Positions 8,310-53,006 of a DNA stretch of 64,000 nucleotides are shown one piece after another. Under the pieces are notes generated by a model. The model ran no database searches. It was not told the origin of the DNA and worked only from the letters and a program-made list of their open reading frames with translations. A program made the position numbers and the translations under genes. Within the stretch, counting starts at the first letter, position 1. Every line of letters starts with the position of its first letter. The DNA is from Alphaproteobacteria bacterium (GTDB taxonomy: Bacteria; Pseudomonadota; Alphaproteobacteria; UBA828): the NCBI GenBank assembly GCA_965214705.1, contig OZ243972.1:1600001-1664000 (forward strand), read 5' to 3'.

Positions 8310-11249
8310 TTAGAGCTCGAGCTCCAGTTCGGGCCCCTCCCGGACCTTCTCCCGCCCCGGCTTCCTGCCCGATTGCTCGGCCGTCGGCCCCGCCGGCGCC
8401 GGTTCCGGCATCTTCGGTTCCGACTTGCTTCGGCCGCCTTCGCGTGCGGGTGCCCGTCCCAATCCTTCTTCGACCGGCCTGTCGTGCTCGCTCTCGAGTG
8501 CTTCCAGCGCCGAAATGCGTTCGCCGGTCACCGCCTCCAGGCGCTCGCGCAGCGCGTTTCGATCGTCCGTGACCAACTCGGCGCTGTAGCGTGCTCGACT
8601 GATCTCCACATAGAGCGTCTTCTGTGTCGTCAGGTGGGGATGATTGGCCTCCATCGCGGCGATCACACGATCCACCGTACGACCCTGGAACGCATGCACG
8701 GTGGATGCCCATGCTCTGTCGATATGCCGCAGCTGCGGATCGTCCGCACGCAAGTTCAGCTCCCGTCCGCTTTCGAGCCTGAACGCGACCTTGCCGCCTT
8801 TCACATCGGTCACCTCTGCCGTGCCGCTGTTGACGAGCCGATGGTTCGCATCGTTTCGTGTCCAGCACACGCGGTCTCCCCGACGCAGCTCCAACGTGTC
8901 CGCGGCATAGACCTCGACCCCGCCCGTTCTTGCCGCCAAGCGTTCCGGCTCCCAGGACACCTTGTCGCCGTCTCTCGACTTCAGTTCGACCACGCCCGCC
9001 TTATGCTTGACGCCCGCCACGCGAAGCTCGTCGCCTTTCTCGACACCGAGACGTTTGTAGGATCGATGAAAGGCCACCACGTCGCCGACCGCGTAGTTGG
9101 CCGCCAGACACTTTTCGGCATTGGTGTAACCGCGAGAGACCAGGCGCTCCGCGTTCATTGCCGGTCCGACGATGGCACCGTCCCGTATCAATCTCTCCCG
9201 CACGATCTCGTTTATCCTCTCACGCAAGGCTTGGCTCGGAGCCATCAGACCCGCGTTGTCGCGCTCTTCGGCCGACAGCGCGAGCCATCGCGCCGCCGCC
9301 GCACCGGCGAGATTGTCCGGCTGAACCTCGGCCACATTCGAACCCAGCTTTTCGAACGCCTTGCGGACATCCCCCGCGAGGCTCGCTTCGACTGCTTCCT
9401 TCAGGGCCGGGTCGCGCTGACGCACGATCTCGTCCATGACCGCGGTTTTCATGCCCGCACCCTGCAACTGCGCGAACGGCTTGCCGGCATCGACGGCATC
9501 GAGCTGCTTCTCGTCGCCCACGAGGACCACCCGCGGCAATCGCAGCGTGTTGGCGATCTTCAGCAGACTTCGGGTCTGCGCTGTCGAAGCCAGAGAACCC
9601 TCGTCTACCACGAACACGGTCTTCGCGAACCTGGCCCGCATGTCGCGCTCGCCCCTGTCCGTCAATCTTCCCTCGGCGACACCGGCATAGCGTGCCAGGA
9701 ACCGCTGCAGGGTCTCGCTCTCGATCCCGGCTTCGCCGGCAAGCGTTTGCGCGGCAGACGCGGACGGTGCCAGGCCCTTGACCTCTAACCCCCGCTTTTC
9801 GAGAAGCTCCCGCGTTCGCTTCAGCATGGTGGTCTTGCCGGTGCCGGCATAGCCCTGGACCCCCACCACGCGATCCTTCTCCGACACGATGAGCTTCACG
9901 GCCTCCTTCTGTCCGACCGTGAGCGGACCGTTTCGCAGTGCCTTCCCCACAGCACGTCCGCGCATCGGAGCGGGAGCTCGTCCCTGGCCGCGTTCCATGA
10001 GCGCGATGGTCTCACGCTCGTCCGCCACCGCCTTGTCGGTCGTGAACGACTCTCCAGGTACCGGGAGAGCCGCCGCGTGCAGCGTTCCCGCCCTCTCCAG
10101 CCGGGCGACGCCAGCCTCCGCCTCGCCGATGGTCACGACGCCCGGCCGCCAGGCGAGAGAGGCGGCAAGCAGCGACGTTCGGGAGAACACTGCCTCGCGC
10201 TCCGACAGGTGCGCCACTGCCCATGCGACGGCGGCGTCGGCATCGCGCTGCGCCGCCGACTTCGAGCCTTCCAGCTCATCGGACCGAGCGACGTTCTCAC
10301 GCTCCGTCTTCCGTTGCGCCGTGCGCCGCGCAGCCTCGTCTGCGAGCCTGTCAACCTCCAGACCGAGATCGGCCGCCTGCCTCTGCCAGCTTGTCCGCAG
10401 CTCCTCCTTGTCCACATCTCGCTTGTGCGCGCGGGTCATCAGGGAGGCGCGCTGCGCCAGTCGCTGGTTCTCTGCCGGTCCCCCAAGACCCTGCGCCGCC
10501 ATCGCCGCTTCGATTTCCGCCCTGCGTGTCGAGAACGCCTCGATCGTCATGCGCGCCACGCCCGCGATCTCGAAGCGTCCGTCCGCATGCGTCTTCTCGG
10601 TCGCGTAACCCAGCGTATCCAGCTCTCTCGCCAGCTCCGCGCGATACAGAGCGCCGATCAGCATCTTGGATGCATACAGCTTCTCGTTGGCCATGGTGCG
10701 CCACTTGCCGTCCTCGCCCTGCACCATGTTGGCGATCACGGCATGCGTATGGAGCTGGGGATCAAGATTGCGAGAGGTGTCATGGCGGAAGGTGGCGATC
10801 AGCGCCTTCTGGTCCCTGGCCCGGGTCATGCGGCCCGTCTCCGCATCCCTCAACCTGGTCTCGACGACGTTCTCCTCGATCCAGGCGAGCGTCCTCCGCA
10901 CCGCCTCGTCATGGGCGGCGACGATACGGGAATCGCCACCGATCAGGGCTGCGATGGAAACCGACTTCGGGGCGGAGAAGGTGACGTCCCGCCCGGGTCT
11001 GTGACTGAACGTGCCGTCCTTTTCGCGCCGGCCCAGCCTGCGTCCCGATCCGTCGGGAACCGTGCCTTCCAGCACGCCCTGGAACGTGTCCGGATCCACC
11101 GCGCCCGACAGTCCCAGAGCCTCGGCTCCTTTGCCCGCCCAGGCACTGGCGTCCCGATGCTCGGGATCGTCCTTCGCGTAGTACCCGTCCTTCTCGTAGT
11201 AGGTGACTCCCTGGGCGGGCGAAGCCACTGCGCCGATCGAGGCGACCAT
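8310..11249 (-). CDS. trwC: MOBF relaxase-helicase (TrwC/TraI family)
   Basis: N-terminal YYEKDGYY, DVTFSAPKSVS, HDTSRNLDPQLHTH (HUH), FSTRRAEI; helicase motifs GYAGTGKT, DEGS and HAFQGRT. Confidence 0.95.
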   Translation of the reverse strand: MVASIGAVASPAQGVTYYEKDGYYAKDDPEHRDASAWAGKGAEALGLSGAVDPDTFQGVLEGTVPDGSGRRLGRREKDGTFSHRPGRDVTFSAPKSVSIAALIGGDSRIVAAHDEAVRRTLAWIEENVVETRLRDAETGRMTRARDQKALIATFRHDTSRNLDPQLHTHAVIANMVQGEDGKWRTMANEKLYASKMLIGALYRAELARELDTLGYATEKTHADGRFEIAGVARMTIEAFSTRRAEIEAAMAAQGLGGPAENQRLAQRASLMTRAHKRDVDKEELRTSWQRQAADLGLEVDRLADEAARRTAQRKTERENVARSDELEGSKSAAQRDADAAVAWAVAHLSEREAVFSRTSLLAASLAWRPGVVTIGEAEAGVARLERAGTLHAAALPVPGESFTTDKAVADERETIALMERGQGRAPAPMRGRAVGKALRNGPLTVGQKEAVKLIVSEKDRVVGVQGYAGTGKTTMLKRTRELLEKRGLEVKGLAPSASAAQTLAGEAGIESETLQRFLARYAGVAEGRLTDRGERDMRARFAKTVFVVDEGSLASTAQTRSLLKIANTLRLPRVVLVGDEKQLDAVDAGKPFAQLQGAGMKTAVMDEIVRQRDPALKEAVEASLAGDVRKAFEKLGSNVAEVQPDNLAGAAAARWLALSAEERDNAGLMAPSQALRERINEIVRERLIRDGAIVGPAMNAERLVSRGYTNAEKCLAANYAVGDVVAFHRSYKRLGVEKGDELRVAGVKHKAGVVELKSRDGDKVSWEPERLAARTGGVEVYAADTLELRRGDRVCWTRNDANHRLVNSGTAEVTDVKGGKVAFRLESGRELNLRADDPQLRHIDRAWASTVHAFQGRTVDRVIAAMEANHPHLTTQKTLYVEISRARYSAELVTDDRNALRERLEAVTGERISALEALESEHDRPVEEGLGRAPAREGGRSKSEPKMPEPAPAGPTAEQSGRKPGREKVREGPELELEL

Positions 11250-11250
11250 C

Positions 11251-13470
11251 TCACAACCGGAGTACGGGCAGAGGCCGTTCTCCGTCCGCTACTTCTGCGT
11301 CGACGACGCCTTCGCCGGCTTCGCCTCGCTCAGCCACGCCTTCACCTGCTCCTGCGCCGTTCGAATCGCCTGCATCCTGCGCTTCGGCGCCTATCGCGGT
11401 TCCGGCGCCTTGGGAACGTCGCCGCTCGGGAAGGCCATCCATCGTTGCCACCTCATCGTCCCGCTCCCAAAGGGCCCATTCGTGCGGTGTCCACCCCTCT
11501 TCATGCCACCCCGCCGAATTCTCTCCATGGGAATCGTCCAAGCCCGTTTCCGCAATTTCAATTGCTCCATTCACGGTCCCCCCGGCTGGCATCGAATCCG
11601 CGACATCCGCAATCCTTGATGGAATCTCTCCACCGTCGTCGGCGGGTTCCGTGGCAGTGACGAACGTTTGCCCGCGCATCTCCTTCGAGCCCGCCCCATG
11701 CGATGGTGTCCGGGAGCGGTCACCGGCACCGCTCCGACCATCATTCCTGGGCACGAAGCGCTGCGCCACCGGGCTCCGCTCCTTGTACGTGAGCGCGATC
11801 CGGGCCACCGGCCAGGAGCCCGGGAACTTGAGATAGCCCGTCAGATTCTCGAGACGCGCCACCTCCGCCGGCAGCACCAGGGGGCGGAGGTCGCGGCGCG
11901 CGCTCAGCGTCACCCCGTCGCGGGGCGTGTCGTAGCTCACCCCCTCCGCGAGGGATTCCACCTCGACCCGCCCGAGGCTTTCCGCCGACCACTCGGACGT
12001 GTCCCTGTCGGGCGCCGCCAGCACCACACGGGTGCCGCAGAGGCCGGAGATCGTCTCCGCCCCGTCCCGGCCGTAGAGGTCCCGCAACGCCGAGAATACC
12101 TGGACGCCCAGCACGAAGCAGCCGCCGAACTGGCGGCTCTCGGCGAGGCCGGGACGGAGCGAGGGGAGCTGGTGAAGTGTCGGCAGCTCGTCCAGTATCA
12201 GCCAGGTGCGGCGCCCGTCCCGGCGGGGCAGCGAGAGCAGCGCGTTCACCGCGATCTCGAGCCAGGTCGAGATCAGGCCTCGCAGGCTTGCATGCTGGTC
12301 GCCCCGCGAGGTGAGGAACAGGAAGCCGGCACCCTCGCTCTCGACCCACTCTCGAATCGAGAAAGAGGGTCCCTCGTCGGGCAGCAGGTCCATGGCGCCG
12401 ATGTTGGCCGTGAGCATGGCGCGCACGGAGAGCGCCGTCTTGGGGTTCTCGGGATCGACGATAGACTGGGCCACGGTGCCCTCCATGGCTTCCGCCAGCG
12501 CCTTGAGCTCGGTCTTGAGCAGGTGGTCGACCAGCACCCGGTTGCGGGTCTCTCCCCGCTGCCATAGCACAGCCGCGCCGTGGGAGAAGAGCTGGCGGGC
12601 CGCGGTGATCCAGAAGGGATCTGCCGCATCCTTCTGCCTGGGGATGAGGGCGGCCGCCATGGTGTCGAAGTCGCGTGCGGTACGGGCTTCGACGAACGGC
12701 GACCAGCGCGGCGCGCGGGCGTCGAGGGGGTTGAGGAGGACGTCTTGCGCGGGGTCGTAGAAGGTCTCGGTGTAGGAGCCCATCTTGTCGTAGACAACGC
12801 AGCGCTCGCCTCTCTTCCGGATCTGCTCCACCAGATCGGCGATGAGCACGGTCTTGCCCGACCCCGTCGTCCCGGAGACGATGGTGTGGCGGGTCTCGGC
12901 GCCCGAGGGCCAGGGGATGCCCGCGATCCGGTATGAACAGGGTTCGTTGCGCCGGAGCAGCCGGCGCGCGCGGCGGTGCAGGGGCAGCGCGCGCCACGCG
13001 AGTTCCCCCGACGTGACCAGCTCGCCGCCTCTGAGCCTTCGGCCCCTTCGGAGACTCCCGCCCACGATGCGCATCGCCACCAGGTAGACGGCGACGAGGG
13101 CGGCACCACTGCCGAAGCCCAGCATGGCGGCGTCGAGAGCGTCCCCTGCGACGCGGTCGCGCAGCCTGAGAATGGGCTTGAACGTGACGATGTAGGCCAG
13201 ACTGCTGGAATAGACCTGCCCGTCCAGGTCCCGGATCTTCTTGCTCTTGTCCGGGTCGAACCCGGCAGCGAGCATGAACTCGCAGAGCGCGTAGACGCCC
13301 ATGACGTGCCAGTCGTGGGAGCTGGTCTCGTCCCAGGTCTTCCAGGCTGCTGCGATGAGCGCACAGGCAAGAGCAGCGAGCAAGGCGCGCTCGACCACCT
13401 TGCGCCAGGTGCGCAGGCCCCGAGCGGCAACACGGACGCCGCGTCCGGTGTCGCCGCCCACCCCGGTCAT
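11251..13470 (-). CDS. traD: Type IV coupling protein (TraD/TrwB family)
   Basis: Two N-terminal TMs, GTTGSGKT, LLNPLDAR, DPFW, LILDELPTL and ESRQFGGCFVLG; ATG at 13470 overlaps the upstream TGA. Confidence 0.92.
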   Translation of the reverse strand: MTGVGGDTGRGVRVAARGLRTWRKVVERALLAALACALIAAAWKTWDETSSHDWHVMGVYALCEFMLAAGFDPDKSKKIRDLDGQVYSSSLAYIVTFKPILRLRDRVAGDALDAAMLGFGSGAALVAVYLVAMRIVGGSLRRGRRLRGGELVTSGELAWRALPLHRRARRLLRRNEPCSYRIAGIPWPSGAETRHTIVSGTTGSGKTVLIADLVEQIRKRGERCVVYDKMGSYTETFYDPAQDVLLNPLDARAPRWSPFVEARTARDFDTMAAALIPRQKDAADPFWITAARQLFSHGAAVLWQRGETRNRVLVDHLLKTELKALAEAMEGTVAQSIVDPENPKTALSVRAMLTANIGAMDLLPDEGPSFSIREWVESEGAGFLFLTSRGDQHASLRGLISTWLEIAVNALLSLPRRDGRRTWLILDELPTLHQLPSLRPGLAESRQFGGCFVLGVQVFSALRDLYGRDGAETISGLCGTRVVLAAPDRDTSEWSAESLGRVEVESLAEGVSYDTPRDGVTLSARRDLRPLVLPAEVARLENLTGYLKFPGSWPVARIALTYKERSPVAQRFVPRNDGRSGAGDRSRTPSHGAGSKEMRGQTFVTATEPADDGGEIPSRIADVADSMPAGGTVNGAIEIAETGLDDSHGENSAGWHEEGWTPHEWALWERDDEVATMDGLPERRRSQGAGTAIGAEAQDAGDSNGAGAGEGVAERGEAGEGVVDAEVADGERPLPVLRL

Positions 13471-13673
13471 CAGCTTTCCCCGGTGCTCGGGACGCCGCCC
13501 GCCCCCCCGGCGAGCTGACTGAACCGTTCCAGCCAGCGCTCCGCCGCCTGCTCGGGCGGCATGGGCCGGACCGTCTTTCGCGACGGCGGGAACGGCGCCC
13601 CGCCGCCGACTCCGAGGTCGCGGCGCTCCGCCGCATCGGTCATGCGAACCACCAGCCGCAGCAGTTCCTCCCA

Positions 13674-15875
13674 CAGGGCAAATTTGTCCAAGCGGCTGGT
13701 AGGCAGTTGAGTTCTGGCCACGGGTTGTGCGGATCGGCTTTGTTGCGGGGTTTGCGGCGGGGTCTGGCCGAGCATCCGGTTCGGTCAGACGGTTCTGGCA
13801 TTACCGTGTGGGCGGTGCGGGCGGTGCCGTCGCGATTTGGCGGTGCCCCGACATGATGGATCGCGCCACCGGCGTGGTCGGGAGCGAGGGCAGGTACGAT
13901 CTTTGCGCCCGGCTTGCCGGGCGCCGGGGTTCAGGCCGGCGCGGCGCGCTTTGCGGTCCTCGGCTGGGTGTTCCCGGTCATTTTCAGGAAGTCGAGGACG
14001 GCGCGGACGTTGCGGGCGAGCCTGCGCACGGTCGAGGCGACCTCGAGCCCCCGGCCCTTGATCAGGCCGATGGCGAAGCGCCGCAGGCGGGTCATGTTCT
14101 CGGGGCCGAAGCCTGTGCGTATGCGGCTGCGGTCCTCGTCCCAGGTCCAGTCGAGGCAGTGGTGCGAGCTGTTCTCGATGCACCAGTGGCCGCGGTTGAG
14201 GGCGAGCAGGCTCTGCGCGTTGGCCGTGCCGGGCGTGTGGCTGGAGATCCCGTAGGCGGTCTCGGTGCCGGTCTCGCCGGTCTTCTTGTCCTGGCGGGAG
14301 CGCTCGATCATGAAGACCTGGCCGACGCCCGGGAAGTCGAGAAAGCCGTTCAACTCCGTGCTCGTCCAGATTGCCCGCTGCTCGATGCGTCCGTGCGACA
14401 GCGCGGCCTCCTCCTCGAAGTCGGGCTCACGCTCCGGCGCCTCTTCGAAGAGCAGCGTCACATCGTCCCGCATGGTCTTCTGGTTCCCTTTCACGATGAA
14501 CATGAAGTGCGCGCCCCGGTCGAGCAGGTAGCGGGCGAACTTGCGCTGGGTTAGCAGCGCGTCCGTCGTGACCGTCTTGCCCGCGATGTTCGGGATCAGG
14601 TCCACCAGCGCCGTCACGGTGCCGATCTCGTTGGTGCGCTTTGTCTCCTCGTCGGCCCCGACTTTCAGGAGAAGTTTTTTTGGGCGAGCGTGGCCTTGGT
14701 CTCGTGCCCGACCGCGCTCATGACATGAGCCTGGGTCCCGTCCTCGTCGATGGCCCCCCTCAGGGTCTTGCCGTCGATGGCAAGCGCCGCGTCGCCTGAG
14801 CCGTGGGCCTCCTGCCACTTGCGCAACGCCTCGTCCAACTGGTCCGGGTCCACCCGGATCACCACATTGCGGATGGTCGACATCGAAGGCGGCCGGCGCA
14901 CCCCGTCGCGCAGCCGCACGCCGAAGCGGGCCAGCGCCTTCTCGCCGAGATCGTCGACCCACTCGGAGATGGCCTTCCAGCCTCGCATGCCGCAGAGCGT
15001 CGCGCCACTCGCAAGCGCGAGCACGCTGGGCAGCGAATGCCGCCGTCCCTTGCGCGTGCGGGGGTCGTCGATGTCCTTGAAGTAGGCGTAGAGCGACTCT
15101 TGCTGAGCGGCGCTGATCATGGTTCTCGGAACTCCTTTCTTCCACAACTCCCGATCCAGCCCGGCAGCGGACAGCCGGCGGCAGGCGTCGGGAACCAGGG
15201 GGCGCAGCAGCACAAGCTTCGGCGTCGAGCCGGCGACATAGCCCGAGCGGTGGCGCCGGAAGCCGCGGGTCTGGCCGACCGCCAGCCATCCAGCCGCCCG
15301 GTAGACCGTGCCCCGGAACCTCGCCGCGTCCACGAATGTTTCCAGCATCAGCACGGGGTGGCCGAAGCGGGCCGGCCAGTCGCGCGCCAAGCGCCGCGCG
15401 CAAAGCCCCAGCACCCGCGAGCCGAGGTTCGGAACACCCCGTCCCGGCAGGATCAGGAAGCGCGCGTTGTTCGCGATCAGATGCAGCCGCCCGTGCTGCG
15501 TGCGGAAGTCCCAGCCGATCCACTCGTCCCGCGCCCGGCACTTGCGCGCCGCAGCCGAAAACACGGCCAGCGCCAGCCACTCGCCGCGCCGATGGGCGAC
15601 GTACCACGCCGTCGCCCCCACCTTCGCAGACGCACCCAGGTAGTGATGCCCCTCCATCAGCGCGCGGAACCGGGCCTCGTCCTCCGGCCGGACAGCAGCG
15701 ACATCGACCTCGGAAAGATCCACCGTAGAAACCGTCCCCCTGCTCGAAGCCGATCCGCAGCAGAACACCGCGAATCCAGTCGCCTCAATCCATAGCAGGG
15801 TTGGCGCGCGCTGACCAGACCCAAGGTCAACTCGTAGCGCAGAACTCAAAATCAGGCTTGGACAAATTCGCCCTG
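13674..15875 (-). mobile_element. ISAs1-family element carrying a DUF4338 domain
   Basis: 20-bp TIRs CAGGGC(A/G)AATTTGTCCAAGC at 13674-13693 and 15856-15875; 10-bp TSD GTTCCTCCCA at 13664-13673 and 15876-15885. Confidence 0.95.
13931..15723 (-). CDS. DUF4338 (DruA-like)-ISAs1 transposase, joined by a -1 frameshift at an A7 run (14675-14681)
   Basis: HHYLG, NNARFLILP and LETFVD (DUF4338); DPRTRKGRRHSL and AIDGKTLRG, then NEI, TDALLTQ, VKGNQ, HGRIE and RGHWCIEN in the -1 frame. Confidence 0.85.
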
Positions 15876-19228: not shown

Positions 19229-19231
19229 GGC

Positions 19232-20407: not shown

Positions 20408-20433
20408 CGGCGACCTCCGACGATATGCCTGAA

Positions 20434-20598
20434 GGGCTTATCCCTCTGGTTCCGGCTCCCCAAGATGCTGTACCGGCTGCTTCGACGAAGTCATTTGCCA
20501 TGGATCCTGTTTTCTAGCCCTTTCATAGCGTTAGCAACTGCAGGGTGGGCAAGCTGGCATTCCACATTTGGGCAAGCCGTGCTCAAAGGGATAAGCCT
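20434..20598. mobile_element. 165-bp MITE
   Basis: TIRs GGGCTTATCCCTCTG / CAAAGGGATAAGCCT; 10-bp direct repeat TATGCCTGAA at 20424-20433 and 20599-20608; lower GC than the flanks. Confidence 0.88.
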
Positions 20599-24787: not shown

Positions 24788-24797
24788 CGATGCGTCC

Positions 24798-25160: not shown

Positions 25161-25170
25161 ATTCGTCTCC

Positions 25171-42346: not shown

Positions 42347-42868
42347 CGAACAGAATGCTGTTGCCGTAGAGCCAGAGGCAGACGCTGCGGAACACCTGTG
42401 CGCCCATGCTCCACTGCTCGGGCGGACTCACGGTCTCGATCACGGGAATGAAGTGGCCGCCCGCAGCCCAGAGCATCAGCACCAGACCCGCCGCCAGCAC
42501 CAGCGGCACGGCCAGCGCCTTCCACACCGCATTCAGCTGCCGCTCGCGCATCTCGGCCACCCGCGCGGCCGCGGCGAACAGCACACCGGCGTCAACCTTC
42601 CCGTAGGCGTGGAAGATCATCGCCTCGGAGGCCGGCAGCGCGTCAGCCGCGGTCTCGGCGAAGCGGTCCTCCAGCAGCGCCCGCCGCCACGAGCGGATCA
42701 CGCCTGCCCGCATGCTCTGGCCCTGCTCCTTCGCCGCCTGGGCCGCGACGCTCAGCGCGCGTTCCAGCGAGAACCCCGCTTCGAGCAGATCGGCGATCAT
42801 GCGAAAGACGTCCACCCGTGCCTTGCGCCCAAGCACCAGCCCCGCCGCCAGCCGTTGCACGAGCCCGG

Positions 42869-44575: not shown

Positions 44576-45609
44576 CGTTCCTCTCCCGCACGGATTGCGT
44601 CGGCAGGCCGCACGCGGTACGGCAGCGACGCTTCCCCGGCGCCTCCAGCCAGCACGTCCCTTTGGGCGGCGACACCCCCTTGGGTGGTCACACCCCTTCG
44701 GGTGGTTACACCCCTTCGGGTGGTTACACCGGGGGGTCTCGCCGTGATCTCCTCGATGAGCACCGCGCCGGGGAGGCGGTCTCCCTCCCGCACGAACCAG
44801 ATGAGCTCACCGTCGCTGACGCCGGCCTGCAGCGCGCCTGCCATGCCGATGATCGAGAACCACGAATAGTCCGGAGGCGTCGCCGCGGGCGCCGGCTCGT
44901 GCTTCGGCGACGCCGCCTGCGATGAAGCACCGCTACCCTCTTCGGGCATAGGCATCCGCCTGACCACGCGGACGGGCGCGGACTCCTTAACTATAGGGAG
45001 ACTGGCGACGCCTGCCGCCGCGCCCCGGATCCCGGCAGCGTCGCCGCGCCATTCGCCGAGCAGCGCCCTGAGCTCGCCCTCCAGCGTCACGATGCCGGTG
45101 ACGATTTCCTGGCGCTCGCGGCAGAGCGCCAGAGTCTCGCGCTCGATCGCCAGCGCCGAGACGGCGTCGTCGGTCTCCACCGCGCCCGTGAGCAGCTTAT
45201 TCAGCAACTCTCGGGGGCAGCCATGCAAGACAGGGGAACGCCCTGCTGCAGGGGAATGCTCAGGAACGCCGCTAACCGCTCCACCGGCCGCGCCCGCACT
45301 GCGTTCCGAAGACCGGGCCACCGTCGTCGACGGCCGGACCGAAGCCGGCTGACCGCCACGCCCACTCAGGCTCCGTAGCAGGCGGCTGAGCGGCCGTGCT
45401 TCCGCTCCTGCATTCATCCCGACACCCGAACGCACCTCTGCCGGACCTTCCTCCCCGCCGGCGCCCTCGGGCACCCCCGCAACCGTGTCGGCGATCTCCA
45501 TCACCGCATCGGGCAGGGGAGCAGGTTCGCCGGCAGCGGGGGAATCGCCCGCCAGCGCCGCGACCAGAATGACCGCGAGGGAAGCCGGACTGCGAACCGG
45601 GGTCTTCAT
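44572..45609 (-). CDS. pilP: PilP-like type IVb pilus protein
   Basis: Signal peptide, coiled coil, C-terminal SIIG...VREGDRLPGAVLIEEI..GV; directly upstream of pilQ. Confidence 0.65.
   Translation of the reverse strand: MKTPVRSPASLAVILVAALAGDSPAAGEPAPLPDAVMEIADTVAGVPEGAGGEEGPAEVRSGVGMNAGAEARPLSRLLRSLSGRGGQPASVRPSTTVARSSERSAGAAGGAVSGVPEHSPAAGRSPVLHGCPRELLNKLLTGAVETDDAVSALAIERETLALCRERQEIVTGIVTLEGELRALLGEWRGDAAGIRGAAAGVASLPIVKESAPVRVVRRMPMPEEGSGASSQAASPKHEPAPAATPPDYSWFSIIGMAGALQAGVSDGELIWFVREGDRLPGAVLIEEITARPPGVTTRRGVTTRRGVTTQGGVAAQRDVLAGGAGEASLPYRVRPADAIRAGEER
44654..44730. repeat. 18-bp tandem hairpin repeat ACACCCCTTCGGGTGGTT (about 4 copies)
   Basis: Units at 44654 (degenerate), 44672, 44690 and 44708; encodes GVTTRR repeats. 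Confidence 0.92.
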
Positions 45610-45616
45610 TGCCCGC

Positions 45617-46858
45617 TCACTCCGCCTCCCTCCCGGTGCCGGGAACGTCAGCATTCATGCCGACGAACCCGGCCAGGGCCCGCCAGGGATACGCGCTGGT
45701 CTCGGGGATGCCGTCGAGTGCAACGTGAAGGTGGCCGCGCGACCACCACCAGCGGCCGCCCACGTCTCCGTCCACGGCGGCCGCCGACAGCGCGCCGCCT
45801 CCGCGGAAACGCACCGCGAACTCGCCGTGCCCGCCGAAGGGAAGAAGAACCGTGTCCTGCGCAGCGACGAGCCGGTCCGTCAGCAGAAAAGCCGCATGCC
45901 GCTCGCCCGTCGGGCGCAGCGGGAAGGGATCGCCTACCCGGTAGTCCTGCCGGCGCGGCAGACGCTCCCACTGCACGGAGATGCCGGCTCCGTCCGCCGC
46001 GGGCATCAGCGCCGCGGTGTCCGCCACCGCGCCGTCCGCATCCAACCGCCAGAGCTCGTCCCGCTCTGGCCCGAGCGCCAGCACCAGGCGCACCCCCGCC
46101 GGACTCTCAAGCACGAATCCGTCGTTGGCCATGAGGAAATGCGCGAGCTCGTCCCCCGTCACTGTCGGCGCGCCCGCCGCCAGCGCCAGTCCCGTGGAGC
46201 CCGGCGCCCGTAGCTCGGGACCCTGGACAGGAAAACTCCCTTGTCCAGGGGAAGGACGCGGCGCGGCGCGGAGCGCCGCCTCCGGGTCCTGCGCGACGGC
46301 CTCCTCCATGACCGTCGCGGTTTGCTTCTCGTTGACCGCAAGCCCCGCCGGAAGCTCGAGATCCGGACAAGCCTCCTTCAGCGCGCGCGGCCAGCTCTCC
46401 TGTACCCAGCCGAGCGAAAGAACGACCCAGTTACCCGCTGCGACACTTTCGCTGTGCAGCCGCCCGGTGCCGGGGTCGTAGAAGATGGGCACATGGCCCT
46501 TCTCGTTGCCCGGATCGGGCTCGCTGCCGGCCTTCTGGTAGTTGTAGAGGGCCCGGAAGCGGGGAGAGGGGACCACCCTCCAGCGACCCTCTCCGGTCTG
46601 CCAGGTATCGTCGAAATGAAAGCACGCGCGCGCGCTTCCGTCCGCCGCGTGATGAACGCCCCAGACCAAGCCCCGGTCCCCGGCCCGCGACGAGTTCGGT
46701 CGCTCGTAGAGCCAGACCCGGTCCGACAGCAGCCCGGCGAAGAACGTTGCGTCGTGGGAGCTGTAGTTGGCGGGCCCGGCCACAGTCGTGCCGCCGCCTG
46801 CGGCGGCCGCCACTACGATTGCGGCGAGGGCGCCCTCGATGATCCTTCGGATCCTCAT
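45617..46858 (-). CDS. Hypothetical secreted, Trp-rich protein (413 aa)
   Basis: ATGA overlap with the upstream gene; signal peptide MRIRRIIEGALAAIVVAAAAG. Confidence 0.75.
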   Translation of the reverse strand: MRIRRIIEGALAAIVVAAAAGGGTTVAGPANYSSHDATFFAGLLSDRVWLYERPNSSRAGDRGLVWGVHHAADGSARACFHFDDTWQTGEGRWRVVPSPRFRALYNYQKAGSEPDPGNEKGHVPIFYDPGTGRLHSESVAAGNWVVLSLGWVQESWPRALKEACPDLELPAGLAVNEKQTATVMEEAVAQDPEAALRAAPRPSPGQGSFPVQGPELRAPGSTGLALAAGAPTVTGDELAHFLMANDGFVLESPAGVRLVLALGPERDELWRLDADGAVADTAALMPAADGAGISVQWERLPRRQDYRVGDPFPLRPTGERHAAFLLTDRLVAAQDTVLLPFGGHGEFAVRFRGGGALSAAAVDGDVGGRWWWSRGHLHVALDGIPETSAYPWRALAGFVGMNADVPGTGREAE

Positions 46859-48486
46859 GAGGCGGCTGCCGACGCAGCTGCGAGCCAGCGCCCCTCGAGC
46901 CGCCGCACCATATCCACGTAGATGTCGAAAGCCCGGTCGTTCTCGCCCACGCCGATCGAAGCGACCGCAGCTTCCACCCGCGCGCGGATCCACGCCCACT
47001 CGGCGTGGTCGCGGGGAATCGCGGCCACGATCCGGGGTGCGATCTCGTAGTAGCGCTCGACCAGCGCACGCCTCTCCGGGGTCTTCTGCATGTAGCCGTC
47101 CCGGAACGTGCGGAGCGCCGTCAGCGTCGGGCCGTCGTCGGCCTCGATGCCGCGATGGCCCACCACCGCCTCGGTGAGGAAGCAGCCGCCACCGTCTCCG
47201 CCGCCTGCGCCGGGACCGACCCCCGGTCCCGAGCAGGTGCCCTCGCCCGGACCATCGCCGCCGCCGTCTGAGCCATCGCCGGGCGTACCGCACGCCCCGT
47301 CGCCCGGGCCGGTCCCGATGCCGGTCGGGCCGCCCGGTGTGAACTTGTCGATGTGGATGATGGGGCGCACCACCCGCTGGCACCCGCCCTCATCGGCGAT
47401 CCAGCTGCCGGGGATGTCCTGTACGGTCGGCTGCGCATCCCAGGGCCAGAGCGTGGAGCGCTCCGTCACCGTCCGCGTCAGCACCGCCGTGCCGCTGTGC
47501 CCCGGCGGACAGGCGCCCGTCGTGGACTCCGTCCGCACTGTCTCCGATATCTCGGCCTCGGGCAGCGCCGGCGTCCGACCTTCCCAGCAGCTCGTCGAGA
47601 CAAACTCGGGCGTCCCCCACTCGGTGCCGTCTGCCGTTACCGTCTTCTCGCGCCGCCAGATCTCCTGCCCGGTCATCTCCCGGTCATGAGGCGGGCCCGC
47701 GAACCAGCTGCACTCCAGCGTGTAGTGCTCCCACTCCGTGTAATCGTCGCGACAGTCGTCGATCAGCACCTGCCAGGGGCCCTCGACGGGATTGCCAACC
47801 GGATCGCCGCGCCCGTCGTGCTCCTGGCGCACCTCGCGCGTCATGGTGCGTCCGTCGCCATGGGTTCCGGTCGGACAAGTCTCCACCGTGCGCTCGTGGG
47901 AGACTCGCTCGCTGAGCCGGAGGTGCGGGTCCCGCACCGTGCCCGCGAGCGCCACCCGCCCGGAGAGAAGGGGGCCGCCGAAAGAGGCATCCGACAAACA
48001 GGCGGGCAGGCTGACTGAGGCCCGCCCCGCCGTGCCCGTGGCCGAGTCTCCTTCCAGCCAGTGGAGCGCCGCGAGCTCCCCCGGCGCGTAGAGGTGCGGC
48101 GCCACCTGCACCGAACGCTGGTCGCGCCCCACCCCCTTGAGCTCCGCAGGCTCCATGTAGACCAGAAGCGTGTCGTCGCAGTAGCGCGCCCGCACGCCCC
48201 GCCCCGTCCAGGCAGCCAGCCAGCCCGTCGCCGCCGGCGGGATCGAGCCCGTCCAGACCGTCGCCGCGGCAGAGCGGCGCAGAATATGGCCTTCCAGCCG
48301 CCGCCAGGCTTCGGAGATGGCCCTCGCATGGGCCAGCGCCTCCTGGCGATAGACCCGCTCGGCCTCCAATTCCTGCGCTGCCACAGGCGATGCCGCCGGA
48401 ATACCGGCAGGCACGACCGCGGCGGCCATGGCCAGCGCGCTCGCACCGGCCATGATGCGGGCGCGCAAACGTTGTCCTCTACCCAT
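46855..48486 (-). CDS. Secreted Cys-rich adhesin-like protein with C-terminal CFI-box-CTERM-like domain
   Basis: Signal peptide, CPxG repeats, Gly-rich linker and GGCFLTEA...LTALRTFRD...VERYYEIAPRIV. Confidence 0.78.
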   Translation of the reverse strand: MGRGQRLRARIMAGASALAMAAAVVPAGIPAASPVAAQELEAERVYRQEALAHARAISEAWRRLEGHILRRSAAATVWTGSIPPAATGWLAAWTGRGVRARYCDDTLLVYMEPAELKGVGRDQRSVQVAPHLYAPGELAALHWLEGDSATGTAGRASVSLPACLSDASFGGPLLSGRVALAGTVRDPHLRLSERVSHERTVETCPTGTHGDGRTMTREVRQEHDGRGDPVGNPVEGPWQVLIDDCRDDYTEWEHYTLECSWFAGPPHDREMTGQEIWRREKTVTADGTEWGTPEFVSTSCWEGRTPALPEAEISETVRTESTTGACPPGHSGTAVLTRTVTERSTLWPWDAQPTVQDIPGSWIADEGGCQRVVRPIIHIDKFTPGGPTGIGTGPGDGACGTPGDGSDGGGDGPGEGTCSGPGVGPGAGGGDGGGCFLTEAVVGHRGIEADDGPTLTALRTFRDGYMQKTPERRALVERYYEIAPRIVAAIPRDHAEWAWIRARVEAAVASIGVGENDRAFDIYVDMVRRLEGRWLAAASAAAS

Positions 48487-49756
48487 GATCCGAACTCCCT
48501 GTCTCCGAATGTGTGGCTGGCTGCGCCGCTGACGTAGTCGCTGGCCCTGCCAGTTCCTCGAAGCGCTCGCGCGGCATCGCCACCGGCGACACCCGGCGCC
48601 CTTCCAGCCGCCACTCGCCGGCGGCGCCCTGCCAAAGCCGCACCAGCTCCAGCCCCGGCACGGCGGCCACGGCGTCGGCAAGCCACGCCGGCGGGCGCAG
48701 CGTCGCGATGATCACCTCGATCCCGTCCGCACTCTGCGACGGGTATTCCAGGCGGCCGCCGTGCGTCCCGAAGTTGCGGTCCACCGCCTCGCGGAACTCC
48801 AGCAACGATGGAGGGGCGGCGTCGGAAAGCCACAGCACGGGCTCGAGCGGCGCCACCGCCCAGGCCCGCGTCCCGGTGACCGAGGCCGCGTACCATGCCG
48901 ACAGATGCGCCTCGGCGATGCGCCGGTGCGGCGGCGCCAGGCGTCCCGTCTCGAGCCGCCAGCGCACCACCAGCACGGCGCGGCCCTCCAATTCCGGGCG
49001 GGCAGCGGCAAGCGCAGGGTCGTCGAAGCGCCCCTCGCAGGAGACCCGCTCCGTGCGCCATGCCGGCAGGTACGGCGGACGGTCTTCCAGCGCCCGCCGG
49101 CAGCCCGCGATCAGTGCGCCCGGGTCCAGCGCCGCCGACACCGGCGGCTCCACCGGAACTTCGGTCTCCGCCACAGGCTCGGGGCCCGTGACCAGACGCC
49201 ACAGGCTCTCGCGGTACGACCACACAAGGGCCACGACCGCGACGCCCCCAGCCACGGCAAGCACCCGCGCGACGTTGGGCAGCTTCAGCCCGGCCAGAGG
49301 CGCGGCCACAAGCCGCATCGCGGGGTCGTCGGCGAGGGCCAACGGATCGATCTCGGAGACCCCTCCTTCGATCAGGCCCGGCGTCGCGTACAGCTCCCAG
49401 CCCACGTCACGGGACCGTTCGAACGCTTCCAGCGCCGAGGCCCGGTCGGGGAACACCTCGTCGCCGTCCGCCAGGAAGGCGCCGTCGCGCGCCTTCACCA
49501 GGGCCAGGCGCCCGTCGTCCGCCTCGACCAGCGCCATCCAGAACGGCGCGCCGATATGCACCTGCAACGACGCCGCGAGGCTCGGGCAGCCTTGCGGGTC
49601 CTCTTCGTCCGCCGCGTAGCCGGTCTGCTCGCCCCGGTGCACGTGCCACGGCCGGCCGAAGGATCGCGCGTTCCGCGCCACCGTGGCCGCGCCGCCCCGC
49701 TCCAGCCAGTAGAGCCCGGCCGCGAAGCGCCGCCCGCTCACGGTCACCACGCTCAC
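48479..49756 (-). CDS. pilO: Type IVb pilus protein PilO
   Basis: GRRFAAGLYW, SLAASL and DGAFLADGD plus a central TM; GTGA overlap with pilN. Confidence 0.82.
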   Translation of the reverse strand: MSVVTVSGRRFAAGLYWLERGGAATVARNARSFGRPWHVHRGEQTGYAADEEDPQGCPSLAASLQVHIGAPFWMALVEADDGRLALVKARDGAFLADGDEVFPDRASALEAFERSRDVGWELYATPGLIEGGVSEIDPLALADDPAMRLVAAPLAGLKLPNVARVLAVAGGVAVVALVWSYRESLWRLVTGPEPVAETEVPVEPPVSAALDPGALIAGCRRALEDRPPYLPAWRTERVSCEGRFDDPALAAARPELEGRAVLVVRWRLETGRLAPPHRRIAEAHLSAWYAASVTGTRAWAVAPLEPVLWLSDAAPPSLLEFREAVDRNFGTHGGRLEYPSQSADGIEVIIATLRPPAWLADAVAAVPGLELVRLWQGAAGEWRLEGRRVSPVAMPRERFEELAGPATTSAAQPATHSETGSSDHG

Positions 49757-51369
49757 AGGGGAACTCCCTGGTGCAGGGGAACTCCCCGATGCAGATCGAC
49801 CCCGTGCAATTCGGCGATGCCGAGCGGCGCCCCGATCTCGGCGGCGATCAGCAGCACGCGCTCCTCGCGCACCAGCCGCGCGCTGCGGCCGCCGAAGGGC
49901 GCGGGAACGTCGGCATCGACGCTCCCCTCCCGGCTCGATACCGCGCCCCGATCGCTGAACCCGGTCACCACCAGGGTCTCGCCGCGCCCGATCCTGCGCG
50001 TCACCTGCACCGCGCGGCCGCCATATGCCGGTAGCTGGATGGTGTGTCCTGAAGAGGTGAAGGTGGTGAAGCGCGGCCGGTCCCTGAGACTCGCACTGAG
50101 GAGCACCAGGACCTCGTCCGGACCCGTGATGCGCGCGAGATAGCTCAGCGCGAACCCCGACGACACGGTGCCGGGCACCAGCTCGGTCTGCGCCAGGCCC
50201 TCGCCCGCCGTGGTCCGGACCTCCTTCAGGTAGGCCTGGTTGATAAGCTCCAGGAACTGTGCCGGCTTGCCGTTGAGACTCGGGATGTCGGCGCTCAGCA
50301 CTCTCGATACAGTTCCCGCCCGGCTCAGCGCCCGCACCGTCGCCGCCAGCGTGTCTCCGGCGCCCCCGGCGTCCTCCGCGCCCCACGGCCTGACCAGCGA
50401 CACCGTGTCCCCCGCCACGGCGACGCCGACGGAAGAGCCGAGGAGCTCGGACACGGAAAGATCCAACCCGTGATCGGTTTCGCGCTCGAAGCGCACCGCG
50501 TAGAGGTGCACCGAAAGCGTCACCGGGCGCAGCACCTCGCGGTTGAGCCAGCCGAGGAAGCCCCGCACCCTGTGCACGTCCTCGGGCCGGCCGCTCACCG
50601 TCACCGAGGCGCTGGAAGGGGAGACCGTGATCCTGGTCTCTTCTCCCACCAGCCCCGCGAGCTGCGCCTCGATTTCCGGCCAGGGGTCGTACTCGGTCTC
50701 GCTCTCGATCGACTGTTCGCTGAGGCTGCTCGATCCCTCCTCGCCGGCCTGGTCCTGGGTCGACGATGCAGTGCCGTGGCGCTCTGTGCCGGCCAGCGCG
50801 TTGACCCGGAACACCGCCGTGAGCGAACGCACAATCTCGATGCGGCCCTCCGCCTCGGCGTCGTACCGGGGAACTCCCCTGTAGCGCCATTCGTGGCCCG
50901 CGGCCTGCGCCCAGGCGTCCAGCAGACGATCCAGCGGGCCGGTCCAGACGGCGCCCGTCGGCGATAGTCCGTCCGGGACCCGGAACACCGCACCATCCCG
51001 CGCAGGTGCTGTGCCGATGAAGCGCACGGCAAGTCCCGTCGCCGCCTCGATTCGCGCAGCCAGCACCGCCTCGTCCTCTGCCCCGGCGAGCGGCAGGGTC
51101 ACCGCGTCGCCCGTCAGGAAGCGTTCGGGCAGCGCGCCCCGCCGGTCCTCCTCCACGAGCGCCAGCCCCACATAGGGCAGGTCCACCCGGCGCACCGTTA
51201 CGTAGCCGGAACCGGATACGCTCTCCCGTTGCGCCGCTGCCTCCCGCGCCACACGGTGCGCCTCGTCGCGCGCGTCCTCGACCGCCGTGAGTCCGCAGCC
51301 GGACAGCGTCACCAGCGCGGAAAGCGCGACCGCCGGCAGCTGCAGGCCAAGCGCCGGGTTCCGGGTCAC
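49753..51369 (-). CDS. pilN: Type IVb lipo-secretin PilN
   Basis: Lipobox LSGC, WTGPLDRLLD, LNGKPA, TELVPGTVSSGF, IQLP and GETLVVTGF. Confidence 0.9.
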   Translation of the reverse strand: MTRNPALGLQLPAVALSALVTLSGCGLTAVEDARDEAHRVAREAAAQRESVSGSGYVTVRRVDLPYVGLALVEEDRRGALPERFLTGDAVTLPLAGAEDEAVLAARIEAATGLAVRFIGTAPARDGAVFRVPDGLSPTGAVWTGPLDRLLDAWAQAAGHEWRYRGVPRYDAEAEGRIEIVRSLTAVFRVNALAGTERHGTASSTQDQAGEEGSSSLSEQSIESETEYDPWPEIEAQLAGLVGEETRITVSPSSASVTVSGRPEDVHRVRGFLGWLNREVLRPVTLSVHLYAVRFERETDHGLDLSVSELLGSSVGVAVAGDTVSLVRPWGAEDAGGAGDTLAATVRALSRAGTVSRVLSADIPSLNGKPAQFLELINQAYLKEVRTTAGEGLAQTELVPGTVSSGFALSYLARITGPDEVLVLLSASLRDRPRFTTFTSSGHTIQLPAYGGRAVQVTRRIGRGETLVVTGFSDRGAVSSREGSVDADVPAPFGGRSARLVREERVLLIAAEIGAPLGIAELHGVDLHRGVPLHQGVPL

Positions 51370-51983
51370 TGATCGCCCTCCTCGAAGCCCGACGAGGGCT
51401 CCGGGCCGCATTCGTCCACGCTGCTGTCGGAAGCCGGTGTGCCGCCGCTTGCCGGACCGGAATCCCGCCGGCCCGATGCGATCCACACCTCCACGTCCGC
51501 GCGGGCGTACAGCACCTGGCCGTCCACCTTCTCGAAGGCAGGCCCGATTCCCTTGGCCCGGTAGCGGTCGAGCGTCCGCCGGCTCACATGCAGCAGCGCC
51601 GCCAGCTCGCGCACGCTCAAGTGGCCCGTTGCGATCCCATTGGTCTTGCCGCCAGGTGCGGCAGCCTGTGGAGCCTTGCCGTTCGCTCCCGCCGACCGCC
51701 GGGACTTGCGCCTTCCCCGTCGCGGGCCGATGATTCGGTCAACCTGCTCTGGCCGCCCCTGCCGCGTGCTGCCGCCGACGCCTTCGTCGGAAGTCGAGCG
51801 CCGCCGCCGGGCAATCGCCCAGTCGTCCAGGTCGCTGCGCAGATAGTGCACGCGGTTGCAGTAGGTCAGGAACGGCGGACCCCCACCCGTCACCCGGTAA
51901 GTCTCCAGGGTGCGGGGGCTCAGCCCCAGGATCGCCGCTGCCTGCAGCGTGTTCAGATAGCAGGCGGGCGTCTTCTCGCCCAT
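51366..51983 (-). CDS. RdfS/excisionase-like protein with two tandem MerR-type wHTH domains
   Basis: YLNTLQAAAILGLSPRTLETYRVTGGGP...LDDW...STSD and LSVRELAALLHVSRRTLDRYRAKGIGP...YARADVEVW. Confidence 0.85.
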   Translation of the reverse strand: MGEKTPACYLNTLQAAAILGLSPRTLETYRVTGGGPPFLTYCNRVHYLRSDLDDWAIARRRRSTSDEGVGGSTRQGRPEQVDRIIGPRRGRRKSRRSAGANGKAPQAAAPGGKTNGIATGHLSVRELAALLHVSRRTLDRYRAKGIGPAFEKVDGQVLYARADVEVWIASGRRDSGPASGGTPASDSSVDECGPEPSSGFEEGDQ

Positions 51984-52260
51984 GACGGTGTCTCTCCCTT
52001 GCATCCGACGATCGCGGTGCATTGGAGCGACATCCCGGTCCCCCGGGGATGGTCGATCTGCTCTGCAGAGCAAGTCGACCACTTACAAACCGGGAACATC
52101 GGCGCCTGGAAATCCCCGCCGCGGCCGCCCCGCTGCCATCCGCCGGGACGGCACCGGTCGGCATGGTCAAGAGCTCGCGGCAACGGCCGCCACAGCCTCG
52201 CGGCTGCAGCCAGCCGACGCGAACCGTCCGGTCTTCCAGGCCCGGCCAGCCGACCCCTCG

Positions 52261-52288
52261 GGCGGATGAAGGCGCCGGCCAGTCCGCC
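52261..52288 (-). promoter_or_regulatory. FseA-box-like inverted hexamer GGCGGA-N16-TCCGCC
   Basis: Perfect 6-bp IR with a 16-bp spacer, directly after the DUF2285 stop and upstream of the rdfS-like gene. Confidence 0.65.
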
Positions 52289-53006
52289 TACCCTGCCGTC
52301 ACAAGGTCGCGGTAATCGCCCTCCATCAGGGCGACAGCCCGGCCGATGCGTCGGCGCACCAGGGATCTGAGTCCGCCGTCCGCATGCCACTCCGCCGCCA
52401 CCTTCGCGGCACCCCGAAGATCCCTCGCGATCTCGCGCGGCTTCTTGCCGGAAAGGTGCCCATCGAGAGCCACGAGAAGCTCGCTGTCGGGCACGCTCCG
52501 CCTCAGGGGCGTTTTTTCCCCCGTGAGCCGAGCGGCCAGAGATCGGCCGCCCGGCGCAGCCGGAGCCTGAGGTCCAGCCCCGCCGGAATGCGCAGCGCGA
52601 TGCCGCCGGCGGGATCGAACGCGTCTCCGTTGACGATCCGCAACTGCACCGCTCTCTTGCCTTCTTCGATCTTCAGGATCACGGCGCCGCTCTGCAGACG
52701 CAGACCCCGCAGCCGGCAGTCCGGGGCCGCCAGAAGCTCGGACAGCAGCGGAGCGTCGGGCGCCGGAAACGCCTCCAGCATCTCCGCCTCCGCCCAGAAC
52801 GGCGACGCCGGGCCGTCGTCCGCCAGCGGGTCCTCCCACGCAAGAAGTCCCCACTCGGCAGCCGCGCCGTCCGCCTCTGTTTGTTTCCTCAACAGGAACG
52901 GCGCCGGCTCAACCGGCGCCGCCGTCTCGGTCTTCCGCCAGGCCTCGATGTAGGCCGGGTTGTGTCGCAGGAACTGCCAGGCGCGTATGCCTCCTTTGTT
53001 GCTCAT
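52288..53006 (-). CDS. FseA-like activator (DUF6499 + DUF2285), split by a -1 frameshift at G5A6 (~52512-52522)
   Basis: AWQFLRHNPAY...EWGLL..EDP in frame 1; LVALDG..GKKPREIA..L.G....EW....LRSLVRR...A.ALMEGDYRDL in the -1 frame; strong RBS. Confidence 0.82.

Follow-up and report, generated by a model that had tools for sequence, protein, structure and literature searches.

The DNA analysed here is a window of 64,000 nucleotides from an alphaproteobacterium of the lineage UBA828 (GenBank assembly GCA_965214705.1, contig OZ243972.1, positions 1,600,001 to 1,664,000). It probably carries a recently inactivated copy of a chromosomal conjugative element, in which an R64-like pilus and an I-type channel (mating-pair formation type I, MPF_I) are combined with a module of an HD-fold protein, a TraD-type coupling protein and a MOBF relaxase, and which belongs to a family of elements found in uncultured alphaproteobacteria. 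I-type conjugation systems as a kind are already known. New here is an I-type conjugative family that uses F/R388-type or VirD4-type coupling proteins together with MOBF relaxases, and the window holds a decaying member of it.

Genes in the window were called by third-position GC bias and compared with Pfam, NCBIfam and the sequences of PDB; because the G+C content is about 70%, raw lists of open reading frames (ORFs) are crowded with spurious frames. One run on the minus strand, from 53147 to 8310, encodes in this order an FseA-like and an RdfS-like regulator, a type IVb pilus block, an I-type type IV secretion system, a gene here called X, a TraD/TrwB-type type IV coupling protein (T4CP) and TrwC, and at least 20 of its genes could be assigned to families. 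The genes of the run lie on this strand unless stated otherwise. The order from fseA to trwC is the one given in a first-pass annotation of the same DNA, and many adjoining ORFs overlap by 4–8 nt, consistent with translational coupling. That annotation spoke of a co-oriented, coupled run, which describes the order and the overlaps well, but two insertion sequences (ISs) on the plus strand interrupt the operon, and it is not intact.

The typing rule in the excerpt of PMC3158045 used here assigns a system to MPF_I when it has at least four type-specific genes among TraI, K, L, M, N, P, Q, R, W and Y. With Pfam and NCBIfam models standing in for the CONJscan profiles, the run was found to contain DotC/TraI (33544–34395; PF16932, T4SS_TraI, 191.1 bits), IcmT/TraK (29867–30211; NF038220, 53.3 bits, cut-off 40), DotI/IcmL/TraM (27780–28424; PF11393, 140.8 bits; NF038072, 129 bits, below cut-off), DotH/IcmK/TraN (26809–27783; PF12293, 154.5 bits) and DotA/TraY (17012–19228; TIGR04346, 215 bits, cut-off 100). 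Among the remaining type-specific genes, TraQ is weak (25171–25707; NF033883, 48.5 bits, below the cut-off of 80), TraW is very weak (19232–20407; NF033888, 17.6 bits) and TraL, TraP and TraR have no supporting match. The TraU (DotO/IcmB-type) ATPase that also characterizes MPF_I is recognized through an intact paralogue of 1033 aa, for which tblastn finds matches in 3763 plasmid records, IncI hosts and genes annotated as IcmB among them; 1824 plasmid records cover at least 80% of the protein. In the window traU occupies 21795–24787 in two frames, residues 1–605 of the paralogue matching one and residues 607–994 the other (tblastn).

The T4CP (11251–13398) matches PF10412 (TrwB_AAD_bind) over the full length of the model (positions 2–387 of 387; 446.4 bits) and TrwB in PDB (1e9r, 204 bits, E = 3.2e-59). 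With the F-type TraD model TIGR02759 it scores 452 bits, below the cut-off of 521, and judged from these matches it would be a member of the TraD/TrwB family and not an equivalog of F TraD. Its longest ORF reaches 13674 and overruns the 3' part of gene X; the start at 13398 is a codon-bias call. TrwC (8310–11249) has an N-terminal relaxase domain (PF08751, 291.6 bits, residues 13–294) followed by a helicase domain (AAA_30, 167 bits, residues 443–636; UvrD_C_2), as expected of a MOBF relaxase-helicase, and matches TraI of F (283 bits) and TrwC of R388 (210 bits) in PDB; DNA nicking is its predicted function. The sole T4CP of the run is thus of the TraD/TrwB type and not of the MPF_I clade (DotL/TrbC), a feature that lies outside the MPF typing rule. 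Neither a VirD4/DotL-type T4CP near the window nor a MOBP relaxase (PF03432) anywhere in the source genome (G000; 7.92 Mb, three contigs, 98.5% complete) was found, which bears out the absence of dotL and dotM reported in the first pass and places no dotL, dotM or MOBP relaxase just outside the window either.

The cluster is not confined to the window. Four syntenic copies of the pil and I-type genes, all chromosomal, exist in G000: the window copy and copies B, C and D. Copy B (C3:332–369k) is intact (TraU 1033 aa, DotB 425 aa, PilR 349 aa) and shows the order dotA, X, TraD, TrwC. Copies C and D have a VirD4/TraG-type T4CP (PF02534, 127–137 bits) after dotA, and a distinct TrwC-family relaxase of 1252 aa lies near copy D. 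When one genome per species was scanned with a DotA alignment, 30 related loci emerged, all in metagenome-assembled alphaproteobacterial genomes. A Burkholderia-like host, to which the three replicons and the GC content had pointed, was discarded in view of these alphaproteobacterial relatives. In 12 of them dotA, X, TraD and TrwC follow each other in this order, on one strand and with short spacers; in 14 dotA is followed by a VirD4-type T4CP, and four are cut short or have neither. One orthologue, in a second genome (G004:C7:112969–151388), keeps the gene order of the window all the way from TrwC to FseA, is free of ISs and has an integrase gene beside FseA. In an even sample of the class (301 genomes), full-length DotA relatives occur in four, counting the source genome itself, and distant C-terminal matches alone in 15 more, one of them an unpublished genome. 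Among 15 other genomes of the genus, 13 had a TraD of this type, against none of 10 outside the genus (one draw).

Integration, excision and regulators

In intact copies, the FseA-like activator would turn on the RdfS-like gene and the long, coupled pil–tra operon, and RdfS would aid the integrase in excising the element. TrwC would then nick the origin of transfer (oriT), probably in the spacer between dotA and gene X, TraD would deliver the relaxase–DNA complex to the I-type channel by a presumed docking, and the thin pilus would stabilize mating pairs. The family is likely to be one of integrative and conjugative elements (ICEs); for the window copy this is unproven. The first-pass annotation had proposed an ICE class and pointed to the flanks for an integrase and att sites; none belongs to the window copy, no tRNA target was found for it, and no tRNA gene exists in 104 kb (the window and 20 kb on each side). 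The sole integrase in the window (60108–61148) is part of an integrase/IS91 unit and has 119 tblastn matches of at least 80 bits in the genome. This unit (60108–64000) consists of the integrase and an IS91-family (Y2) transposase, with an IS110-family element interrupting it; an IS91 zinc-finger domain and IS110 domains occur together in the ORF at 61155–62648.

The missing integrase and att sites would suit a family of integrated plasmids, or of chromosomally fixed (Hfr-like) transfer systems, that do not excise, as would the flanks of the G004 orthologue, which share a single long repeat, an 8-nt tandem repeat and not a clean att pair. However, an RdfS-type excisionase is present, an integrase gene adjoins FseA in the intact G004 orthologue, and all copies are chromosomal with no close relative among 72,556 plasmid records, none of which covers at least 80% of DotA. 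We therefore regard this alternative as unlikely, although it is the strongest of those considered, and prefer an excising element. Tandem arrays of the 8-nt unit lie about 66 kb apart in G004 and flank the element (L078 at about 8776, G004:C7:98776; L081 at about 15303–15415, G004:C7:165303 onward). ARAGORN calls of tRNA genes in L079 were set aside as likely false positives, one of them lying inside traU. The G004 integrase has its best match in G000 at C1:2708242–2709375 (84% identity), beside a remnant. There, C1:2708000–2724000 (part in L044) contains RdfS-like, X, TraD and TrwC (in two pieces) without mating-pair genes, 8 kb from the integrase; the run may be a mobilizable deletion derivative.

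The FseA-like gene consists of two overlapping parts. The N-terminal part (52503–53147) has a DUF6499-type motif, AWQFLRHN, to be compared with AWEFLRRN as quoted for the published family in part of PMC10359603, a WGL motif and a middle region (Pfam Trans_reg_dom, weak). The C-terminal part (52288–52854), in an overlapping frame, has the DUF2285 helix-turn-helix (HTH) domain at about 52299–52488 (PF10074, RovC_DNA-bd, E = 7.4e-13). Both domains of the FseA family are thus represented. The passages used of PMC4755241 and PMC10359603 attribute the published FseA fusion to a +1 shift at UUUC, close to the WGL motif. Here the ORF continues past WGL, and DUF2285 follows in the –1 frame right after the stop of the N-terminal part. 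The same –1 relation, with the break just before the DUF2285 HTH, was found in all six FseA-like loci examined (window 52288–53147; G000 C1:1309140–1309930, C3:680640–681440, C1:3439750–3440520 and C1:1836300–1837100; L081:300–1500), three of which have a run of six A at the junction. With a –1 relation of the frames and a break at another position, the +1 programmed frameshift is not seen at any of these loci, and the gene differs in this from the published FseA; the two parts represent either a –1 frameshift or slippage fusion, or a two-protein arrangement.

The RdfS-like ORF (51366–52082; PF12728, HTH_17, 67 bits in two stretches) matches RdfS in PDB with residues 35–106 (8dgl, E = 1.2e-12), a second HTH_17 unit occupying residues 155–204. 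This winged HTH is the type found in RdfS, and a role in excision is predicted. A near-perfect palindrome of 32 nt without spacer (52050–52081; 16-nt arms, 88% complementary) lies upstream of the RdfS-like coding part. It is a possible operator and corresponds to the "box" of the first-pass annotation; the true start of the RdfS-like ORF is probably downstream of it. A candidate FseA box, a pair of hexamers 16 bp apart at 52261–52288, was discarded: it overlaps the FseA stop codon and is unconserved in the alignment.

A search with the N-terminal part placed FseA upstream of pilN in the window and in G004, and also in copies C and D (both with VirD4-type T4CPs). The FseA/RdfS pair is not a constant part of the family: with this query it was at the matching place in one of the seven other TraD-type copies examined. 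The first-pass annotation also had this switch driving the transfer system, but since four genes of the window copy are broken (see below), it drives nothing as it stands.

The coupling module and its partners

The TraD–TrwC genes and the I-type cluster might be two separate elements, an F-type or mobilizable module lying beside an unrelated I-type cluster that does not use TraD. Such modules do exist in G000, where F-type elements carry TraD–TrwC at 59–60% identity and where the remnant at C1:2717–2724k has RdfS, X, TraD and TrwC without mating-pair genes. However, the order dotA, HD-fold gene X, traD, trwC is kept in 12 of 12 TraD-carrying loci, on one strand and with short spacers, and no other T4CP lies near the window. 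Furthermore, a TraD tree of 36 rows, without duplicates and matches shorter than 450 residues, grouped every one of the 13 I-linked TraD proteins in a single clade of 22 rows (aLRT 100) without any F-linked TraD, the other nine rows having an unknown or X-only context. The F-linked rows belong to true F-type elements found in the same genus. Because of the recurring loci and this separate clade, the module appears to be an established part of the I-type family and not a chance neighbour, and to be no very recent loan from co-resident F-type elements; two separate elements are very unlikely. The link of an I-type machine and a type IVb pilus to a TraD/TrwB-type T4CP and a MOBF relaxase, proposed in the first pass, is thus both physical and evolutionary. 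In a DotA tree of 30 rows, from which L032, L035, L040 and L041 were omitted (fewer than 600 aligned residues), the TraD label requires two changes, and L029 falls inside the VirD4-type clade with support of 100/99. To judge by this tree, coupling modules would have been exchanged between I-type backbones at least twice.

A complete-looking MPF_F region in G000 at C3:236000–261000 (L042, L043) contains TraE, TraB, TraC, an X-like gene, TraU, TraN, TraF, TraH and TraG, followed by TraD–TrwC. Similar F-type loci lie near C1:1953–1971k and C1:3029–3049k, and a TraC-like gene at C1:1842.9–1844.3k. An MPF_T system was looked for in the genome and rejected: PF03135 has no match, and four weak matches of TIGR00929 are F-type TraC genes. 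Four VirD4-type T4CPs were found: those of copies C and D, and two more at separate places on contig C3. Against IcmO/DotL of a Roseomonas plasmid, both local T4CP types score 24–28 bits (TraD 28 bits).

Gene X, which precedes TraD, is divided by an IS into a 5' part to about codon 149 (15876–16428; mapped on paralogues) and a 3' part (13450–13673; residues 149–209 of the copy B protein map to 13673–13494, and the bound at 13450 is approximate). No Pfam family, and no Pfam HD match, was found for it. Its neighbours in a protein language model are YfbR-like/HD_3 clusters (0.84–0.89, leads below 0.9), and an AlphaFold2 model (pLDDT 71) matches the Agrobacterium structure 2gz4 in Foldseek (E = 3.2e-6, TMq 0.53–0.57) and, more weakly, human HD-domain protein 2. 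In the alignment the residue after an invariant His71 is Ala or Gly and not Asp, the register of the motif being read without structural superposition. The "HD" gene of the first-pass annotation is therefore real at the level of an HD-like fold, but split by a third IS. That it was a mis-called IS transposase could be dismissed, its first 184 codons being the conserved, non-IS gene X with an HD-like fold. A homologue with 50–54% identity lies just after traC in F-type elements. Between dotA and X, a non-coding spacer (16430–17011) with GC-rich hairpins and a conserved block at about 16726 (alignment of eight loci), the core 11-mer of which occurs once in the genome, is a candidate oriT.

Another possible use of such a machine is the secretion of protein effectors by a host-associated bacterium, as with Dot/Icm. 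Small shares of the stretch do occur in sequencing runs labelled as sponge and coral metagenomes, but also in marine ones, and are uninformative on habitat. The operon, however, has an SSB, a relaxase, a T4CP and excision regulators of the FseA/RdfS type, the cluster is present in four copies in the manner of mobile DNA, and no DotL, DotM or IcmS/W-type parts for recruiting effectors were detected; effector secretion as the main function is accordingly very improbable, and conjugation is preferred.

In a bolder reading, which we advance only tentatively, a single I-type channel serves two unrelated classes of non-DotL T4CP without a DotM/N-type adaptor, TraD/TrwB with an F-like TrwC and VirD4/TraG near the 1252-aa TrwC-family relaxase, and the two have been swapped at least twice. 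How coupling proteins dock on their channels, and how far they are compatible across systems, is described as an open question in part of PMC12857230. If the reading is true, docking on a type IVB secretion system would be generic or would be supplied by the co-transferred HD-fold protein. Because the same backbone is combined with either of two foreign coupling proteins, the family amounts to a natural swap experiment on T4CP docking. In the excerpt of PMC3158045, MPF_I is rare in chromosomes, is there essentially Dot/Icm and is never found in multiple chromosomal copies, and in that of PMC3548315 the T4CPs of MPF_I are nearly monophyletic. The present family breaks three such patterns, being chromosomal, present four times in one genome and equipped with either of two foreign coupling proteins. 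On the bolder reading, no family of multicopy chromosomal MPF_I ICEs would have been described before it, and it would be partly under an FseA-type activator with a –1 instead of a +1 frame change. It would also bring an I-type transfer machine under the FseA/RdfS excision switch, with another kind of frame change.

Besides the lack of an integrase, att site or tRNA target for the window copy, and the fact that the sole integrase in the window is part of an integrase/IS91 unit, several points weigh against the conjugative reading preferred here. FseA lies upstream of pilN in just two of the eight TraD-type copies examined (window, G004), and the N-terminal query did not find it at copy B or at the loci of G001, G002, G003 (two loci) and G005. 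TraU has no match in Pfam, NCBIfam or the PDB sequences; its identity comes from tblastn matches to plasmid genes, the closest of which, from alphaproteobacterial plasmids, are 35–38% identical. The I-type parts TraP/DotF, TraR, TraL and TraW are unsupported by Pfam and NCBIfam, and the TraD tree was made by a quick method. Finally, all relatives are metagenome-assembled, and transfer is predicted from the genes.

Lesions in the window copy

Four genes of the run are broken, which the first-pass annotation had missed. IS1 (30475–32628, plus strand) encodes a DDE_Tnp_1 transposase of 618 aa, has perfect inverted repeats of 17 nt and a 4-bp duplication, ACTC, and splits dotB/traJ after about codon 320 of 425. 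The 5' part (32629–33547; T2SSE) corresponds to residues 1–320 of copy B DotB (33547–32642) and the 3' remnant (30231–30474) to residues 339–400 (about 30501–30316). The intact DotB of copy B (425 aa) matches DotB in PDB (6geb, 191 bits). IS2 (40251–42346, plus strand; DDE_Tnp_1 transposase of 627 aa, 17-nt terminal inverted repeats, 4-bp duplication CGAA) splits pilR exactly at codon 175 of 349, residues 1–175 of copy B PilR lying at 42872–42348 (tblastn) in the 5' half (42347–43034), and residues 175–347 at 40250–39732 in the 3' half (39723–40250), in the same frame. IS3 (13674–15875, minus strand, 2202 bp; DDE_Tnp_1_assoc, DDE_Tnp_1 and a DruA-like N-domain) splits gene X at about codon 149. 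All three positions were mapped on intact paralogues. The IS1 and IS2 transposases are 54% identical, and their ORFs were noticed by a very high third-position GC. Full-length copies in the genome number 22 for IS1, 21 for IS2 and 19 for IS3 (at 98% identity or more).

The fourth lesion is in traU, where one base near 22990 is missing relative to the intact 1033-aa paralogue, outside any homopolymer; traU is one uninterrupted match in all nine TraD-type loci that cover it. Contigs of four public sequencing runs from two studies cover the stretch, accepted from 90% likeness, and some may come from relatives. One contig of X16 joins 30470 to 32629, with four letters shared, which is the dotB site empty of IS1, and one contig each of X1 and X18, at about half depth, has an extra base behind 22987 in traU. 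X15 and X16 cover the traU break without the extra base. Many other long-distance contig joints with sides of 20–24 letters were treated as spurious. Because the run contigs show the IS1-empty site and the extra-base traU variant, the damage appears polymorphic and recent, and the lesions look real; it tells against the former point that the IS1 joint has 26 letters on its shorter side, with likeness from 90%, and could stem from a relative.

As assembled, the window copy is most likely not self-transmissible, because dotB, pilR and gene X are split, traU is frame-broken and no cognate integrase is adjacent. That it is nevertheless functional, the traU break being an assembly error or bypassed and the insertions tolerated, could appeal to the extra-base traU variant in two runs, the IS1-empty site in a third and the conserved frame change of the FseA-like gene, which shows that such changes can be kept here, but is most unlikely in view of two runs without the extra base, a break outside homopolymers, three different ISs with target duplications in dotB, pilR and gene X, and the status of DotB as a conserved ATPase of such systems. 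The preferred reading of an inactivated copy thus describes a transfer element that insertion sequences of the same host genome have put out of action while intact alleles remain in circulation.

Known systems, remaining genes and surroundings

The comparison with IncI1 plasmids is based on the gene roles in R64. R64 and ColIb-P9 resemble the present element in their pilN–pilV block, in homologues of TraH, I, J, K, M, N, O, Q, U and Y and in one long gene run. Unlike them, the element is chromosomal, the TrbC/DotL T4CP, TrbA/DotM and a NikB-type MOBP relaxase were not detected, neither rci and a shufflon nor the transglycosylase PilT occurs among the ORFs scanned, and TraU is 35–38% identical to the closest plasmid TraU. 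With Dot/Icm as found in Legionella and Coxiella the element shares DotA, B, C, D, G, H, I, IcmT and a DotO-like ATPase, but it lacks the coupling complex of DotL, M, N and IcmS/W, has a relaxase and an SSB, and is mobile and multicopy. As in trwB–trwC of R388 and in TraD–TraI of F, the T4CP gene lies directly upstream of the relaxase gene; the channel, however, is I-type instead of P-type or F-type, and the upstream gene encodes an HD-fold protein instead of a TrwA-like DNA-binding protein. The regulators resemble FseA/RdfS of ICEMlSymR7A in that a DUF6499-type motif and a DUF2285 HTH occupy two overlapping frames beside an RdfS-like winged-HTH gene, but differ in the –1 frame, in the two HTH_17 units of the RdfS-like ORF and in transfer genes that are I-type instead of trb. 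The closest TraU in the plasmid database is that of the type IVB system of Roseomonas mucosa pSKB0092-2, which also has DotB, C, G, H and I; identities are 25–40%, however, and that plasmid has an annotated IcmO/DotL, is typed MOBP and matches neither TraD nor TrwC within the 43-kb locus. No published account of the architecture was found in the full-text literature, a scope that excludes the supplementary tables of surveys, which may list an I-type element, and most subscription journals; together with the lack of a close relative in the plasmid database, this agrees with the first-pass suggestion that the architecture is possibly undescribed.

The pilus block starts with a PilN-type secretin lipoprotein (49753–51486; TIGR02520, 146.7 bits, below the cut-off of 287.65; Secretin_N_2). 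Four ORFs follow at pilO/pilP/pilM-like positions (44572–49756), which are kept in all four paralogous copies (42–70% identity) and have no Pfam or NCBIfam family besides one domain match: the ORF at 46855–48681 has a CFI-box-CTERM domain (41.7 bits, cut-off 40), which is unexpected in a pilus assembly gene. Next are a PilQ-type assembly ATPase (42869–44575; PF00437, T2SSE, 133.7 bits; GspE/PilB-like in NCBIfam), the split pilR, a PilS-type prepilin (39040–39894; PF08805 PilS, Bundlin, N_methyl), two PilV-like minor pilins (37808–39043 and 36567–37823; Shufflon_N, E = 1.3e-5 and 7.5e-13) and a PilU-like prepilin peptidase (34941–36251; Peptidase_A24, below cut-off) with a TcpQ-like domain at its C-terminus. 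No rci-type recombinase and no lytic transglycosylase was found among the ORFs scanned in 8310–53500, in agreement with the absences reported in the first pass.

In the I-type part, the remaining genes are DotD/TraH, a lipoprotein (34365–34910; PF16816, 99.9 bits; NF033882, 83 bits, below cut-off), an ORF with a TcpQ domain (29310 to about 29860; 32 bits), a DsbG/DsbC-like thiol-disulfide protein (28417–29313; NF008657 DsbG, 67.6 bits, below the cut-off of 124), a weak DotG/TraO with a VirB10-like C-terminus (25704–26903; TrbI, 23.8 bits; TraO and DotG models about 50 bits, all below cut-offs) and an SSB (21054–21749; PF00436, 100.7 bits). The names traR and traL given in the first pass have no family match behind them, the former standing for a 120-aa ORF within 24798–25707 and the latter for an ORF at 20531–21166 that is conserved in all four copies; traW, also conserved in all four, owes its name to the very weak match given above.

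Beyond TrwC, the stretch from 3600 to 8300 has a lower GC content (57–62%) and separates the relaxase gene from Toprim and YAcAr genes. Within it are a small HTH_73 gene and gene fragments, one for a solute-binding protein and one for the N-terminal piece of a flavoprotein. The Toprim and YAcAr genes past it are also conserved beside copy B and are typical of ICE backbones. The load of mobile DNA in G000 is extreme: TrwC has 21 matches of at least 500 bits, Toprim 38 matches and YAcAr 30, and three IS families are present in about 20 copies each.

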